32,000 bases of DNA. Source: Candidatus Thorarchaeota archaeon (GTDB lineage: Archaea; Asgardarchaeota; Heimdallarchaeia; Hodarchaeales; Hodarchaeaceae). The first letter of the stretch is position 1; the number at the start of each line of letters is the position of its first letter. The position numbers and the translations under genes were made by a program. The notes under the pieces were generated by a model. That model searched no databases. It was not told the origin of the DNA and saw nothing but the letters and a program-made list of their open reading frames with translations. Shown here one piece after another: positions 6,455 through 30,403 of the stretch. The stretch lies in assembly GCA_048882505.1 (NCBI GenBank), contig JBHLRO010000013.1, forward strand, positions 30,001-62,000, given 5' to 3'.

Positions 6455-7536
6455 GGCTGAAAGTACGAAGCTAGGCTTTTAGTAGACTTTGTCCGTTTTT
6501 TTATTTGATACCTCTTATGTTCTTCTTGGAGATGTGTTTCCCACGACTTTGTTATTTTTTCCGGGAATTTTTTGCGGAGCACCTGAATCACTTCGCCTAA
6601 ACCAGGTTTTGCTGAGGGATCCTTCCCGAGGATTTCGTATACGATTTCTAGGATCTGGTAAAAATCGAATGTTCCAAACGTCTTATACTGACTCTGAATG
6701 CGTGGAGGTTTCCAGTCATCCAGGATTCTGGATTGTATTAGCTTTTTATAGCTCGAATTGATCTCATATCCTATCCCTCGTCTTCCAGTAAGACGACAGA
6801 CCTTTAAAGTTGTTCCAGACCCTAAAAAGGGATCAAGAACAGTTTCTCCTCGCACAGAATGCATCCTGATTAGCCGATATGGGACATCCTCCGGAAATGG
6901 TGCTGAATGACCGAATTTATTTTCGCCACGATGGTTGATCTTAAATACAGGGGAAATATCATCCCATATACAGCGAACGGCCCAGTGACGCCACTCTTCT
7001 TTCGTCAAAAGGCTTTTTTGCATTGCTGCTTTGTCAACTTTCCGGGTTTTTCCTGGTTTAACCCATACGAAGATCTGTTCAAATCCCGTGTTGGATGCAA
7101 TATTCGTGGGTCTAGGATAAGACCCCCAAGAAACGTTAGACACATATTCCGCCTTATCCCAATAATGCATACCTGAGAGGAAAACCCCTTGTGCCTGCAA
7201 ATATTTCTGTATGTCAAACATAATATTCTTGATGATTCGACGCCCAAATCCCGATGTGTGCCGATCAATGGGAAGGGGTTGTATATTAATCGCAATTTTT
7301 CCATTAGGTTGAAGGACACGTATACATTCGGCCCAAACACGGTTTAAAGAACTAATATAATCGTTATATGCTTGACCGAATCCAATCTGATCGCTTCCAT
7401 AATCTCGTACAGACCAATAAGGTGGAGAAGTCACAACCAAAGTTACCGACTCGTCGGGAACCTCTTCCATCTTTTCTGCAGACTTAAAGAAGATCGTTTG
7501 GCTCTCAATGACAAGTTTTTCCCCTAGAGTTATCAT
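6451..7536 (-). CDS. Orphan beta-class amino DNA methyltransferase (probably N4-cytosine) with a C-terminal extension
   Basis: Motif IV VTSPPY near the N-terminus, HSAPFP, motif I VLDPFLGSGTT, IGYEIN. This order defines the beta class; SPPY is typical of m4C enzymes. About 100 extra C-terminal aa end in TKSLASYFQP. Confidence 0.92.
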   Translation of the reverse strand: MITLGEKLVIESQTIFFKSAEKMEEVPDESVTLVVTSPPYWSVRDYGSDQIGFGQAYNDYISSLNRVWAECIRVLQPNGKIAINIQPLPIDRHTSGFGRRIIKNIMFDIQKYLQAQGVFLSGMHYWDKAEYVSNVSWGSYPRPTNIASNTGFEQIFVWVKPGKTRKVDKAAMQKSLLTKEEWRHWAVRCIWDDISPVFKINHRGENKFGHSAPFPEDVPYRLIRMHSVRGETVLDPFLGSGTTLKVCRLTGRRGIGYEINSSYKKLIQSRILDDWKPPRIQSQYKTFGTFDFYQILEIVYEILGKDPSAKPGLGEVIQVLRKKFPEKITKSWETHLQEEHKRYQIKKRTKSTKSLASYFQP

Positions 7537-7602
7537 TCCATGAGGACTCCTGTTCTTGGAAATATAAAAGATAATAGAGAGTTTGTTTTGATTCTAGATG
7601 TT

Positions 7603-8484
7603 TCAACTTAAAAAAGCCCTGAGACGCTTTAAAAGAGATATATTGACTTCATCTCCCTTATCACAGTCTTTTGGGGTCTCAAGAATCATTGGAAGCTCTT
7701 TGAATCTCCTATTTTGCATTAGTTCACGGAAGCACTCAATTCCTATTTCTCCCTGTCCAATATGTTCATGATAATCAATACCAGAACCAAGAGATCCCTT
7801 GGAATCGTTGAGATGAACTAGCTTCACCTTGTTTTTACCGATCTGTGATTCGATTATATCGAATACTTCATGCAATCCTTCTGGCACGGAAATATCATAC
7901 CCTGCCGAGAAGGCATGAGCAGTATCGAAACAAACTCCGACTTTTTCTGATCTTGTAACCAATTTCAAAATTTTTTCAATATCTTCCGTCCTTTTGCCCC
8001 AAGATTTCTGTTTTGATGTTGAATTTTCCAACAAGATCATTTGTTTTTCATCTAAATTTTCCACAACGTGGTTTAAAGCATTAGCTACCCGTTTTGCGGC
8101 AAATCCACTGTCACGGTCCTTTGGGCTACCCATATGAGATACCAAATAGAGACCATTCAAAGATTTAAGCGTCTGGACTTCTTCTTCTAGGACCTTCAAA
8201 GACCGAGCGTAAATCCCATCATCAGGAGAAGCTAGATTAGGTAGATACGGCATATGAACTGCCAAGTCATAATATCCAGCTTGTGCAGCCTTCTCAATGA
8301 ATAATGAAACCGAACCAGGATTAAGTGTGTTTTTCCCCGCAGCCCACCTTCGTGGAGGCCGTGTAAAGATTTGCAGGCATTCACAGGAACTTTTAATCCC
8401 CCTGTCAACGGCCAGATCAATGGACTCGGCGATTGATTTGTGGGCGCCTATCCGCGGTAGTTCGAGCTTTTTGTTGGATTTCAC
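7603..8484 (-). CDS. nfo: Endonuclease IV (AP endonuclease)
   Basis: IGAHKSI, LQIFTRPPRRW, AVHMPYLPNLASPD, SHMGS, ILLENS, VCFDTAHAFSAGYDI, HLNDSK..GSGIDYHEHIGQG, ILETPK (Zn ligands present). Confidence 0.96.
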   Translation of the reverse strand: MKSNKKLELPRIGAHKSIAESIDLAVDRGIKSSCECLQIFTRPPRRWAAGKNTLNPGSVSLFIEKAAQAGYYDLAVHMPYLPNLASPDDGIYARSLKVLEEEVQTLKSLNGLYLVSHMGSPKDRDSGFAAKRVANALNHVVENLDEKQMILLENSTSKQKSWGKRTEDIEKILKLVTRSEKVGVCFDTAHAFSAGYDISVPEGLHEVFDIIESQIGKNKVKLVHLNDSKGSLGSGIDYHEHIGQGEIGIECFRELMQNRRFKELPMILETPKDCDKGDEVNISLLKRLRAFLS

Positions 8485-27366: not shown

Positions 27367-27606
27367 GTGCCCTTGAATATGGAAGACGATTACCTGGGAA
27401 CAGAAATGTGGATTAAGGTCGTTCTAAAGGATTTAGGTGAAGCAACCACTCAGGAGATAATTGATCACGTTAAGATATACAACCAAGAATGTGCAGATCG
27501 AATTCCAATGGCATTGGCTCAAATGCGAACCAACGGGAAGGTATATTACAAGATTCGGGCATCGCAAGATGAAAAAAGAAAGAACATGGTGTGGAAATTG
27601 ATATAA
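27367..27606 (+). CDS. Small winged-helix protein
   Basis: VVLKDLGEATTQEIIDHV..RIPMALAQMRTNGKVYY..VWKL fits three helices plus a wing. Alternative ATG start at 27379. Confidence 0.7.
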   Translation: MPLNMEDDYLGTEMWIKVVLKDLGEATTQEIIDHVKIYNQECADRIPMALAQMRTNGKVYYKIRASQDEKRKNMVWKLI

Positions 27607-27610
27607 GAGG

Positions 27611-29329
27611 TCAAATCTTAATTTCTTGACCTTCCAAGGGAATAATAATGTCCGGGCTCATCCTATGGATTTCAACCACGTATTCTCTTGTTTCATCCCC
27701 AAGATGCGTCAATACGAGCCGCTTGGTATATTCGGTTAGTTTTTTTGCTTGGAAATAATTTAGGTGGACTCCTGCGAGTTCACGACGAAAGAAATTGCAC
27801 TCTACCACTGCCAGATCTGTGTTTCTGACAAGTTCAATGAGATTGTCTGTCCATCCTGTATCCCCTGAATAAGCTAACTTCATGAATGGGGTTTCTATTC
27901 GATAACCCTGCGCTTCTGGTGTGTGTGCCATGGCAATAGGGATTATCTGTATCCCATTGCTAGCAAAAGGCTTTTTATGAGTTATTTCAACGTAATAGCA
28001 CGGATGGGGGAGTTCGATTTTTGGTATATTTCCATAAAACAGGTGAAACAATTCACTAATTCGGTTTTTGAGTAGAGGAGGCCCAAGGATCGTGAGAGGT
28101 TTGGTGCGTGATGGGTGAAGATACATCAATTCCAAAAGGAGGAAGGGCATGCCAGCCAGATGATCTCCATGAAAATGGGTGATAAGAATCATATCGAGAT
28201 CATCGGTACTTCTCCCCGTTGCCTTCAATGCCTGAAGAGCATGGGGTCCGCAATCCAAGAGAATTCCCTTATGCTGAAATTCTAAAAAAATACCTGCACT
28301 CTTAAAGCCAGCCGCAGCAAAAGCATCTCCTGTTCCTAAAAAAACTAAATTCCCATGAGGTTTATTTTTTGAAAGTATCCGAGTTCCTACTGATCTGCTA
28401 TTATTCAAAACATAAGGAAAATCTTCTACACCAGTAACCACACAATCTACATACCCTCTCGCGAGCTGAACAATATTTTCCAATTTTCCCTGCATAGCAC
28501 CCGTCACATCGTGTCCTCCGCTGGTTTCCCCGCTTTCGAATTCCAATAAAGCGTTTTTCTCTCCATAGCATAGATAACGGTCAGGAAAAACTTCTATTCT
28601 GTTAATATATTTTGCTCCGTTTAAAAATGGATCCTTGGTATATATTCCAACCTTTTTTCCTGAGACTTGTGTAATAAAGATTGCCCTGGTCAAGTTAAGC
28701 CCTGAAATACGATCCATGAGTGCAGATGGAATAATATCCCCTGAAAACACTCGCCATCCATCGTGAGTGTAACCCATATCTCCAAAAAACATAGGTATTA
28801 CATTCGTATTGCTAATTAAATCCTCCAGTACGTCAAGATTGGGCGCGGTTACCTTTTTTGCCGCTTTTTCTGTAGTAGGATCTCCTCTCAAGATCTGATG
28901 CGAAGTAATGGAAACGGTCGGTAGTCCCGCCTGGATCCCTGTCGCGACAAGAATCTGGTTCTGAATTCCGACTGCTAGCTTGATAACGGGGGAAATTTCC
29001 TGGAGGGTTTTTACATCCTCTGCAAGCGTGGCAACAAGGGGATGACCAATAGAGCCAGCACCATGCAATAGGATTATCTTTTCATGGGGAGTCTGCCTAA
29101 GATGACCACGTATGGTCGTGAAAATTTTATTGGCTTGTTGCAGATCAAGAAGATTGAAGATAGTGGTCTGCAAATCAGACAAATTGGCAGAAGAGTCCAT
29201 AAAACTCTCGATCGAAGTCAAGTATTCATGAATCCTGTCATTATCATGCTTTCGTGTGATTACGTTTCCTCCCAGTTTAACTAGCGTAAGATCCTGCTTT
29301 TTCATTACTTTAATCCCAGCATAGCTCAC
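27611..29329 (-). CDS. Isopentenyl phosphate kinase (amino-acid-kinase fold) fused to an MBL-fold metallohydrolase
   Basis: aa ~14-319: LVKLGGNVIT, HGAGSIGH, FGD, FSGD, DVTGAMQGKL. aa ~326-572: FLGTG, LLDCG, THFHGDH, YSGDT, VVEC, HLN, LTHL. Likely ATG start at 29305. Confidence 0.88.
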   Translation of the reverse strand: MSYAGIKVMKKQDLTLVKLGGNVITRKHDNDRIHEYLTSIESFMDSSANLSDLQTTIFNLLDLQQANKIFTTIRGHLRQTPHEKIILLHGAGSIGHPLVATLAEDVKTLQEISPVIKLAVGIQNQILVATGIQAGLPTVSITSHQILRGDPTTEKAAKKVTAPNLDVLEDLISNTNVIPMFFGDMGYTHDGWRVFSGDIIPSALMDRISGLNLTRAIFITQVSGKKVGIYTKDPFLNGAKYINRIEVFPDRYLCYGEKNALLEFESGETSGGHDVTGAMQGKLENIVQLARGYVDCVVTGVEDFPYVLNNSRSVGTRILSKNKPHGNLVFLGTGDAFAAAGFKSAGIFLEFQHKGILLDCGPHALQALKATGRSTDDLDMILITHFHGDHLAGMPFLLLELMYLHPSRTKPLTILGPPLLKNRISELFHLFYGNIPKIELPHPCYYVEITHKKPFASNGIQIIPIAMAHTPEAQGYRIETPFMKLAYSGDTGWTDNLIELVRNTDLAVVECNFFRRELAGVHLNYFQAKKLTEYTKRLVLTHLGDETREYVVEIHRMSPDIIIPLEGQEIKI

Positions 29330-29353: not shown

Positions 29354-30403
29354 CTATGGTTTATTAATTTCGTTAAGAACTGCTGCAACCAGAAGATCTA
29401 ATGTAGCTTGAATATCGTTCATACGGACAGTTTCAAAATCAGTATGGGTATACCGGGTTGGTACAGCTACCATTACCGTGGGATGGCCTCTTTGGAAAAA
29501 ATGCATTCCATCTGTGTTGAAATTTCTGAAAACTGCTTTTTGCATAGGTACCTCGAAATTCTGGGCACTTTTTTCCAAGAGCTTAATGTTATCTATGGAA
29601 TAGTGGATTGAAAAGTCTTTATAGACGATTATTGGCCCCGCTCCTAGTTTTGTAGGTAAGAAATCTTGTTCAGATGAAGGAATATCACCTACCAGACCAA
29701 CATCAATAATAATTACCAAATCATACCTATCATGAAGTGCAGCAGCAGCGGCTCCTTTCATTCCGATTTCTTCTTGCACAGTTGAGACCAATGTTAGATT
29801 TGGAGAGGTTTTTCTTCCTAAAACCTCATCCACTAAAAGACACTGAAGAGTCAAAGCCACTCGATTATCCATACTTGGACCCACGATGTTTCGCTGCCTA
29901 TGTACCACACTGGATGCAAAAACAGCTGGTGTTCCAATATCTATCCCTAGCGCATGGACTTCTTGATCTGAATCGACGCCAAGGTCAATGAAAATCTCTG
30001 GAAAGAGCACGGGTTTTTTTTTACCCTCGATTCCCGCCAGATGGCCGCTACGCAGTCCAATGTAACCTTCGACAGTCCCTGTATCTGTAAGAAACCTTAA
30101 GGGAACTCCCGATAGGAACCGTGCATCCGGAGTGGTAGCTGCTGTGTTAAAAGCAACCTTTAAAAATCCGTTGGGAAGAATTCGCTCAACCAGGAACCCT
30201 ATCGTATCTGCATGCCCTACAATAGCGATATGTTTTCCTTCCCCTTCCAGGCGACCGAACAAATTGCCGACCTTGTCTTCCGACGTTTTTAACCCCATTC
30301 CCTTCCAATTGTTTCTGAGAAAGTGTTGAACAGCCCCTTCTCGACCTACGGGTCCAGGTATTTCTGCTAGTTGCTTCAACAATCCAAAAATATCATGATC
30401 CAT
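29354..30403 (-). CDS. M42-family metallopeptidase (TET-like aminopeptidase)
   Basis: GPVGRE, DKVGNL, GHADTIG, FIDLG, SMDNR, TVQEEIGMKGA, IDV, TDG, VPTRYTH. Confidence 0.95.
   Translation of the reverse strand: MDHDIFGLLKQLAEIPGPVGREGAVQHFLRNNWKGMGLKTSEDKVGNLFGRLEGEGKHIAIVGHADTIGFLVERILPNGFLKVAFNTAATTPDARFLSGVPLRFLTDTGTVEGYIGLRSGHLAGIEGKKKPVLFPEIFIDLGVDSDQEVHALGIDIGTPAVFASSVVHRQRNIVGPSMDNRVALTLQCLLVDEVLGRKTSPNLTLVSTVQEEIGMKGAAAAALHDRYDLVIIIDVGLVGDIPSSEQDFLPTKLGAGPIIVYKDFSIHYSIDNIKLLEKSAQNFEVPMQKAVFRNFNTDGMHFFQRGHPTVMVAVPTRYTHTDFETVRMNDIQATLDLLVAAVLNEINKP

Follow-up and report, generated by a model that had tools for sequence, protein, structure and literature searches.

A fusion of an isopentenyl phosphate kinase-family domain with an arm-less RNase Z-like metallohydrolase domain in a Hodarchaeales lineage

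Introduction

Kinases of the isopentenyl phosphate kinase (IPK) family add a phosphate group to a phosphomonoester, and metallo-β-lactamase (MBL) proteins of the RNase Z type that lack the tRNA-binding arm are small-molecule phosphodiesterases, which release phosphomonoesters. In this work we analysed a gene that unites a member of each family in one reading frame. It lies on the minus strand of a 32,000-nucleotide stretch of DNA (the window), positions 30,001 to 62,000 of contig JBHLRO010000013.1 of the Asgard archaeal assembly GCA_048882505.1, which is placed in the Hodarchaeaceae. The encoded protein is most likely a soluble enzyme with two activities, specific to this lineage and restricted to Hodarchaeales. 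Because an ordinary IPK is encoded elsewhere in the genome, the fusion probably has a second role, a two-step conversion of a small phosphate ester.

In the archaeal mevalonate pathway isopentenyl phosphate (IP) is produced by the steps of AcnX and a UbiD-like decarboxylase. No archaea known at present are more closely related to eukaryotes than the Hodarchaeales, whose isoprenoid metabolism is under debate. In phosphonate catabolism the substrate of PhnP is a cyclic ribosyl phosphate, which PhnP and then PhnN convert through ribose 1,5-bisphosphate to phosphoribosyl diphosphate (PRPP). Both archaeal-type and eukaryote-type mevalonate genes have been reported in Hodarchaeales (PMC11052028). 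IPKs are promiscuous as a class, they have been used as biocatalysts for non-natural alkyl diphosphates, and four alkyl-pocket positions were defined for the characterised enzymes: R1 (Y/F/A/S), R2 (I/V/T), R3 (I/V/T) and R4 (I/V) (PMC8500459). Of the arm-less MBL proteins, YhfI and Apyc1 hydrolyse cyclic mononucleotides (PMC9117128). In Haloferax volcanii the gene of an exosite-less tRNase Z-like MBL protein, NZ (HVO_2763, arCOG00500), adjoins the IPK gene HVO_2762, but its authors found that the neighbourhood was not conserved, and they observed neither activity on RNA or model substrates nor a link to isoprenoids (PMC3296008). An exosite-less MBL associated with an IPK is common to the fusion and to NZ, which differs in being encoded by a separate gene.

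Results and Discussion

Architecture of the fusion gene

The open reading frame (ORF) runs uninterrupted on the minus strand from a GTG at 29329 to a stop codon at 27611-27613, and encodes 572 amino acids if counted from the GTG. An initial annotation of this DNA, made from the letters and an ORF list, had described a single unbroken ORF at 27611-29329 and left the strand unstated; both the ORF list and the translation agree with it. The most likely start codon is the ATG at 29305 (gene 27611-29305, predicted product 564 amino acids), because the database copy P0002 and the relatives all begin with MKK at this point. The first domain is an IPK-family amino-acid-kinase domain (28376-29290, residues ~14-318 of P0001), which matches Pfam AA_kinase over residues 14-299 (61.2 bits, cut-off 24.9). 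A short linker of ~9 residues (28349-28375) joins the C-terminus of the kinase (GTRI) to the first strand (VFLGTGDAF) of an arm-less RNase Z-like or class II phosphodiesterase-like MBL domain (27614-28348, residues 328-572), in which residues 356-542 match Lactamase_B_2 (73.5 bits, cut-off 27). The two domain identities proposed in the initial annotation, an IPK-family kinase and an arm-less RNase Z-like MBL, were right by the combined results of Pfam, NCBIfam, Protein Data Bank (PDB) and Foldseek comparisons. The AlphaFold2 model built on the family alignment had a pLDDT of 89.8 and a pTM of 0.88, values which suggest that the two domains form a fixed, compact two-domain body. The linker, which is conserved in the family alignment, had a pLDDT of at least 78 throughout.

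Authenticity and distribution of the fusion

An assembly error or the loss of a stop codon could also unite two adjacent genes, and such an artefact had been named in the initial annotation as a finding that would undo the prediction. No evidence in its favour was found; the match of one relative from the same genus (G125:C11:151037-152713) contains one in-frame TGA, which may be a sequencing error or mark a broken copy. The search of 5.8 billion proteins found ~55 full-length relatives with the identical two-domain architecture and 41-51% identity, which come from separate assemblies, several of them on contigs of 0.6-4.9 Mb (including 3.2 and 4.9 Mb). Moreover, a 714-nucleotide contig from an independent study (X2) matches positions 28056-28769 with zero differences or indels and spans the junction at ~28372, which the initial annotation had put near 28360 and named as a place to check for read support. 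With the junction crossed without an indel, the nine-residue linker conserved and the architecture repeated in ~55 independent assemblies, an artefact can be regarded as refuted.

The distribution was determined in a set of 201 Asgard genomes in which each GTDB species is represented once. In its full length the fusion was confined to the window's own GTDB genus and family, where it occurred in 10/10 genomes including that of the window (G000), and the matches in the other Asgard genomes were stand-alone MBL or IPK genes only. The database labels of the ~55 relatives are likewise all Asgard (Hodarchaeales, Heimdallarchaeota, Promethearchaeota and one Thorarchaeota). Among 55 sequences the residues G20, G21, K27, H96, G183-D184, S196-G-D198, D274 and K282 of the kinase and D359, H385, H387, D389, H390, H469, D490, H522 and H542 of the MBL half are invariant; K18 and H89 are invariant in a set of 26 sequences and conserved to at least 90% in the 55-sequence alignment. 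Judged by this conservation, the contig across the junction and the model, the fusion gene is real and under selection. The architecture was not recognised as described in the initial annotation, and no published description of it was found in the searchable literature, not even in a survey of mevalonate genes in archaea from 2024 in which Hodarchaeales are treated. The fusion joins two known enzyme families in a combination that is new and confined to one lineage.

Family and origin of the kinase half

Among NCBIfam models the kinase half ranked highest on NF040647 (IPK, EC 2.7.4.26), with 68.6 bits against a cut-off of 120. Its sequence matches in the PDB were IPKs only (8u0k, 3k4o and 3ll9), Foldseek gave TM scores of 0.76-0.84 to the IPK structures 8u0k, 3ll9 and 7lnv (0.81 to 8u0k), and a feature search of the ESM Atlas returned generic AA_kinase and IPK clusters and nothing more specific. 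With IPKs (NF040647; 8u0k, 3k4o, 3ll9, 7lnu) it shares the amino-acid-kinase fold, the Lys/Gly-rich loop, the GxGxxGH loop with the catalytic His, the GD and SGD aspartates, the DVT..M..K motif and hydrophobic residues at R1 and R2. In the window protein these motifs read K18-x-GG, H89GAGSIGH96 (29042-29065), G183-D184, S196-G-D198 and D274VT..M..K282, followed by G315-T316, and H96 aligns with the catalytic His60 of the Methanocaldococcus jannaschii IPK in the alignment to 3k4o. The catalytic His in HGAGSIGH and the DVTGAM..K motif are therefore kept, as had been read from the sequence initially, and H96, D274 and K282 belong to the invariant residues. By these comparisons the kinase half is a member of the IPK family with the amino-acid-kinase fold, and it is predicted to keep the full machinery for moving the γ-phosphate of ATP onto a phosphate monoester.

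The fusion differs from IPKs in a helical insert after the first Gly loop, in an insertion of 2-3 residues in the TDVDG motif, in its score (68.6 versus the required 120 bits), in the appended MBL and in sharing its genome with a more canonical IPK. The N-lobe insert (29090-29242, residues ~30-80) was located from the KLGG-HGAGS spacing and the DSSP assignment of the model. It had been announced in the initial annotation as a helical insert of 35-40 amino acids; its existence stands, with three helices in the AlphaFold model, whereas its size must be corrected to ~28 extra amino acids, since KLGG and HGAGS are 71 residues apart in the fusion and ~43 in typical IPKs.

A HMMER search of 1.84 billion representatives returned 183 hits at E ≤1e-3, which consist of the fusion family, a few stand-alone kinases of 320-340 amino acids in which part of the insert is also present (P0195, P0199 and P0207) and ordinary IPKs of ~260 amino acids. 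In a maximum-likelihood tree rooted on the UMP kinase of the genome, the fusion kinases formed a single clade (support 100) nested within the IPKs, with P0195, P0199 and P0303 as neighbours (support 77, then 94), and the stand-alone IPK of the genome fell in another IPK clade. The labels of P0195 and P0199 are Asgard ones, and that of the P0199 cluster is Hodarchaeales. With this query no stand-alone orthologue of the fusion kinase was found in five genomes of sister Heimdall families (G091, G026, G073, G105 and G176), in which the canonical IPK was the sole, weak match. Genes for HAD-family phosphatases adjoin those of the long-insert kinases P0195/P0199, which are the closest relatives of the fusion kinase without an MBL (L008:434-1084 and 7098-7769; L010:6975-7742; L011:4267-5034), which may hint at a pairing of kinase with phosphatase or may be due to chance.

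A second, stand-alone IPK

The presence of a second, stand-alone IPK gene had been listed as a point to check in the initial annotation, and such a gene was found in all five genomes of the genus that were tested (154-168 bits). In G000 it is located at C8:9332-10123 and scores 165.7 bits as a genomic match and 167.9 bits as an ORF, above the NF040647 cut-off of 120. The four other genomes each contain one stand-alone IPK (154-163 bits) and one fusion (75-85 bits). Because the stand-alone enzymes score 154-168 bits and the fusions 68-85 bits in the same genomes, the fusion kinase is classified as a diverged IPK paralogue and not as the IPK of the pathway. And since a separate, more canonical IPK is kept in these genomes, the fusion represents an added function.

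The genome appears equipped for the pathway in which IP is made. At C2:58338-60671 of G000 a UbiD-like gene (183 bits) and a gene for AcnX of the phosphomevalonate dehydratase type (477 bits) are found side by side, and no diphosphomevalonate decarboxylase of the eukaryote type was detected with TIGR01240 in this genome, which is 94.5% complete. The stand-alone IPK of G000 (L001:1468-2316, minus strand) reads TGVGSPGH where IPKs have HG(A/G)GS(F/Y)GH: the second, catalytic His is kept, the first His and the aromatic residue are missing, and yet the protein scores 168 bits.

The substrate pocket of the kinase half

The pocket residues of 16 fusion kinases were compared with those of 125 canonical IPK representatives; positions were mapped by sequence alignment to 3k4o, not from coordinates. 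At R1 the fusion family has Tyr or Phe (Ser in the window protein) and at R2 Ile or Val, all within the IPK-like range. The remaining positions depart from it. R3 is Gly in 16/16 fusion kinases, whereas the canonical enzymes have V/I/A/L/C and Gly in 0/125, and R4 is Phe in 15 of the 16, a residue which is not among the five commonest (L/V/I/C/A) in the 125 canonical rows. Residue 123 is Gln in all 16 fusion kinases and Leu in 120/125 canonical IPKs; residue 193 is Lys or Arg (16/16) where the canonical IPKs have mostly Ser, Thr or Ala, and residue 192 is Trp (16/16) where they have mostly Phe, Cys or Tyr. The stand-alone IPK of G000 carries V, L, L and S at R3, R4, 123 and 193. The uniformity of these replacements indicates that the alkyl pocket of the fusion kinase is one rebuilt under strong constraint. 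IP or dimethylallyl phosphate (DMAP) is a possible substrate, and the monoester that is phosphorylated may be an isopentenyl-like alkyl phosphate or a somewhat larger or more polar compound.

These residues bear on an explanation in which the kinase half is a working IPK isoenzyme that the MBL half counteracts or adjusts by converting isopentenyl diphosphate (IPP) or dimethylallyl diphosphate (DMAPP) back to IP or DMAP, so that the pair would buffer the IP:IPP ratio or supply DMAP for prenyl-FMN. Plants offer a parallel, in which IPK and Nudix hydrolases buffer IP and IPP. The catalytic residues of the fusion kinase are of the IPK type, R1 and R2 are inside the IPK range, IP is made in this organism by AcnX and a UbiD-like decarboxylase that needs prenyl-FMN, and the structural matches of the MBL half include 6b9v, an MBL of the PhnP family whose structure was solved as that of a diphosphatase; the promiscuity of IPKs as a class (PMC8500459) points the same way. 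However, the kinase is far below the IPK equivalog cut-off and each genome has a better IPK elsewhere, Gly186, Phe195, Gln123, Lys193 and Trp192 are outside the common residues of the 125 canonical IPKs, and the closest characterised MBL relatives are diesterases and not diphosphatases. Other archaea with the same pathway lack such a fusion, and no MBL of this family was found within 4 kb in 80 IPK loci (see below). Taking both sides into account, we consider a buffering pair of this kind a serious but doubtful possibility.

The MBL half

The MBL half ranked highest on the NCBIfam model of RNase Z (TIGR02651), with 105.9 bits in two stretches around a gap (cut-off 292.95). Its metal ligands are D359, H385xH387xD389H390, H469, D490, H522 and H542, so the full HxHxDH/D/H site noted initially is present; the HFHGDH motif is at 28160-28177 and is invariant in 55 sequences. 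With RNase Z (1y44, 2fk6, 2cbn) the domain shares the MBL fold, the HxHxDH motif followed by GxPxLL, the GYR segment after the motif III His, the SGDT motif IV, E-C-N-F ... H-L-N at the place of the HEAT/HST loops, and the final His ligand. It differs from RNase Z in having no exosite arm for binding pre-tRNA and in its length (~245 amino acids versus ~300-320). In the alignment to Bacillus subtilis RNase Z (1y44) residues 155-159 of the domain face chain residues 151-205, the alignment skipping 152-204, and the arm of ~50 residues is gone, in agreement with the initial description of an arm-less protein. A separate RNase Z-like ORF of G000 (C14:567-1364) covers the arm region of the model and is a candidate for tRNA 3' processing.

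The best structural match in Foldseek was BA1088 (1zkp, TM 0.84), with YhfI (6kns, 0.78-0.84), Apyc1 (7u2r, 0.79) and PhnP-family proteins (among them 6b9v) also found, and the TM scores to the RNase Z structures 1y44, 2fk6 and 4gcw were 0.69-0.79. The domain resembles the class II phosphodiesterases YhfI, BA1088 and phage Apyc1 in size (~245 amino acids), in the arm-less MBL fold and in the binuclear site, but its identity with them is only 20-22%, and those enzymes lack a fused kinase. By fold and ligands the MBL half is assigned to the binuclear-metal phosphodiesterases of the RNase Z/YhfI/Apyc1/PhnP group, and, because the tRNA arm is missing, it should act on a small molecule.

Stand-alone relatives of ~247 amino acids have 36-44% identity with the domain; those with a named source are bacterial (Acidobacteriota, Cytophagaceae, Binatia and Limnocylindria), and none of these relatives reaches any NCBIfam equivalog. 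In the MBL tree the fused domains formed one clade (support 94) in a subfamily with the ~247-residue proteins and the stand-alone MBLs of sister Heimdall families, and the MBLs of the more distant sampled Asgard families grouped with RNase Z-labelled proteins in a separate branch. In the fusion-bearing genus the fused copy was the sole match to the MBL query at E ≤1e-10.

The nearest solved folds (YhfI, BA1088 and Apyc1) raise the question whether the fusion is a nucleotide enzyme, in which the MBL half would hydrolyse a cyclic nucleotide and the kinase half would convert the nucleoside monophosphate to the diphosphate, ending or recycling a cyclic-nucleotide signal. UMP kinase exemplifies an amino-acid-kinase fold able to accept a nucleotide. 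Gly at R3 would enlarge the pocket, and Trp192, Phe195, Gln123, Lys193 and His144 could stack on or form hydrogen bonds with a base and ribose. The cyclic-nucleotide phosphodiesterase families NF041851 and PF23023 (Anti-Pycsar_Apyc1) do match the MBL half, but with scores far under the cut-offs (75.6 versus 400 and 30.3 versus 50 bits, respectively). The kinase moreover branches within the IPK clade and well away from UMP kinase, and the conserved neighbourhood contains no gene for a cyclase or effector. A role of this type seems quite improbable.

A possible two-step reaction

The reading which we prefer, and to which we give somewhat less than an even chance, is that the two halves act in sequence, since the product class of the MBL half is the substrate class of the kinase half. 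The MBL domain would open a small phosphodiester or cyclic phosphate to a phosphomonoester, which the kinase domain would then phosphorylate to a diphosphate. PhnP and PhnN of the C-P lyase pathway (3g1p, TIGR03307) provide a working analogy only: there, too, an arm-less MBL opens a cyclic phosphate and a kinase makes the diphosphate. PhnP is a detectable but weak relative of the MBL half (44.1 bits, cut-off 272), whereas PhnN is a P-loop kinase without the amino-acid-kinase fold, the two are separate proteins, and no phn genes were found in the neighbourhood of the fusion.

In a more specific form of the sequential reading, which is speculative and rather unlikely as stated, the fusion would carry out both steps by itself for a metabolite so far unrecognised in archaea, taking a small alkyl or prenyl phosphodiester, or a cyclic phosphate, and regenerating the energised diphosphate. 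If this were true, phosphate-ester metabolism, possibly that of isoprenoids, would have a salvage or repair branch not known before, which arose in the archaea nearest to eukaryotes. The conservation of a second enzyme of the IPK family tied to a phosphodiesterase implies a pool of small phosphate esters, recycled or regulated in these organisms, that is missing from current pathway maps, and a natural pocket remodelled with Gly and Phe, together with a built-in diesterase, could extend the toolbox of IPK biocatalysts.

Several points weigh against sequential action. Fused domains need not work one after the other; their activities could be opposed or have nothing to do with each other. The IPK-like character persists at R1 (Tyr/Phe) and R2 (Ile/Val), and Gly at R3 and Phe at R4 may compensate each other, so that the use of IP or DMAP is possibly retained. 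No gene indicative of isoprenoids, lipids or diesters was present in the conserved neighbourhood, as determined in the window and four relatives, and the stand-alone MBL relatives P0088, P0115 and P0078 had no consistent partner, their neighbours being genes for a helicase, Nudix and HAD proteins, a pseudouridine synthase and transporters.

Two other substrate classes were considered and set aside. Healing of RNA 2',3'-cyclic phosphates by a kinase and a cyclic phosphodiesterase, as in tRNA ligase, is unlikely because enzymes of the amino-acid-kinase fold phosphorylate acidic oxygens and not hydroxyls. Membrane-lipid head groups or dolichyl phosphate are unlikely substrates, as neither the AlphaFold model nor the family matches indicated a membrane segment (no transmembrane predictor was applied).

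Linkage of IPK and MBL genes

Whether the fusion reflects a general association of the two families was examined in 80 IPK loci (mostly archaeal, with a few bacterial-labelled contigs), whose flanks of up to 4 kb contained 1665 ORFs, using a hidden Markov model of the MBL family. None of the 80 loci had a member of the MBL family within 4 kb (E ≤1e-3), while positive controls scored 294-349 bits, and in Asgard genomes with IPK and MBL on one contig the two genes were at least 44 kb apart. The Rosetta-stone idea that the fused MBL is a general partner of IPK across Archaea was rejected on these grounds. Since no locus of the 80 carried the MBL family, the adjacency of NZ and IPK in Haloferax looks coincidental, or at least not general.

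The lack of linkage outside the genus speaks for yet another explanation, in which the domains have no functional relation, or the MBL serves mainly in oligomerisation or regulation, and the fusion arose by accident in this lineage and was fixed neutrally. The case of H. volcanii NZ, an MBL beside an IPK with no isoprenoid link and no conserved neighbourhood, fits such an accident (PMC3296008). On the other hand, both active sites are fully conserved at 41-51% identity, the linker is short, the model is confident and compact (pTM 0.88), and the sole copy of the MBL subfamily in these genomes is the fused one. A neutral fusion is therefore regarded as improbable.

In six Methanobacteria IPK loci (L061, L070, L091, L099, L106 and L123) ORFs of ~450 amino acids located ~1-2 kb downstream gave a faint MBL signal (E 0.3-3.4). 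They fall outside the MBL family of the fusion and may, we presume, be beta-CASP RNase J-type genes, which are known near isoprenoid genes in Euryarchaeota.

Gene neighbourhood of the fusion

The gene order around the fusion is common to four relatives (41-48% identity). It comprises one or more opposite-strand MFS transporter genes, an M42 peptidase gene, the fusion and a small convergent ORF, and continues with genes for a Ras-like (Rab-like) GTPase, its 256-residue partner (longin), GNAT and hexapeptide transferases, a second M42 peptidase, a HEAT protein and ERCC4. The initial annotation had proposed that the fusion balances or salvages prenyl phosphates for ether-lipid synthesis; this proposal is left without direct support, with no isoprenoid or lipid gene nearby and no linkage between IPK and MBL.

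In the window the gene of the M42-family peptidase (29354-30403, minus strand; Pfam Peptidase_M42, 198.6 bits) is situated 48 nucleotides upstream of the ATG of the fusion. It is directly upstream on the same strand in four of five loci, L004 being the exception; the gaps in the relatives are 20-44 nucleotides, with an 8-nucleotide overlap in L006. The two genes are probably co-transcribed.

The small ORF convergent with the fusion (27367-27606, plus strand) encodes 79 amino acids and occupies the same place in 4/4 relatives. At 46-58% identity it is better conserved than the fusion, and it had no Pfam family match. Its sequence (TTxEIIxRV ... CADRIPMVLTQMRxEGKV ... W) suggests a putative small winged-helix protein.

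Other probable fusions of IPK

IPK domains were also seen in other composite frames. In the Asgard families f24 and f13, canonical IPKs (200-290 bits) lie within frames of 632-645 amino acids together with an FMN_dh-type domain (L015:1459-3393, L031:1468-3387 and L044:403-2313). By their domain content these look like fusions of IPK with type 2 IPP isomerase, which follows it in the pathway. In family f16, IPK occurs in frames of ~450 amino acids with an extra part.

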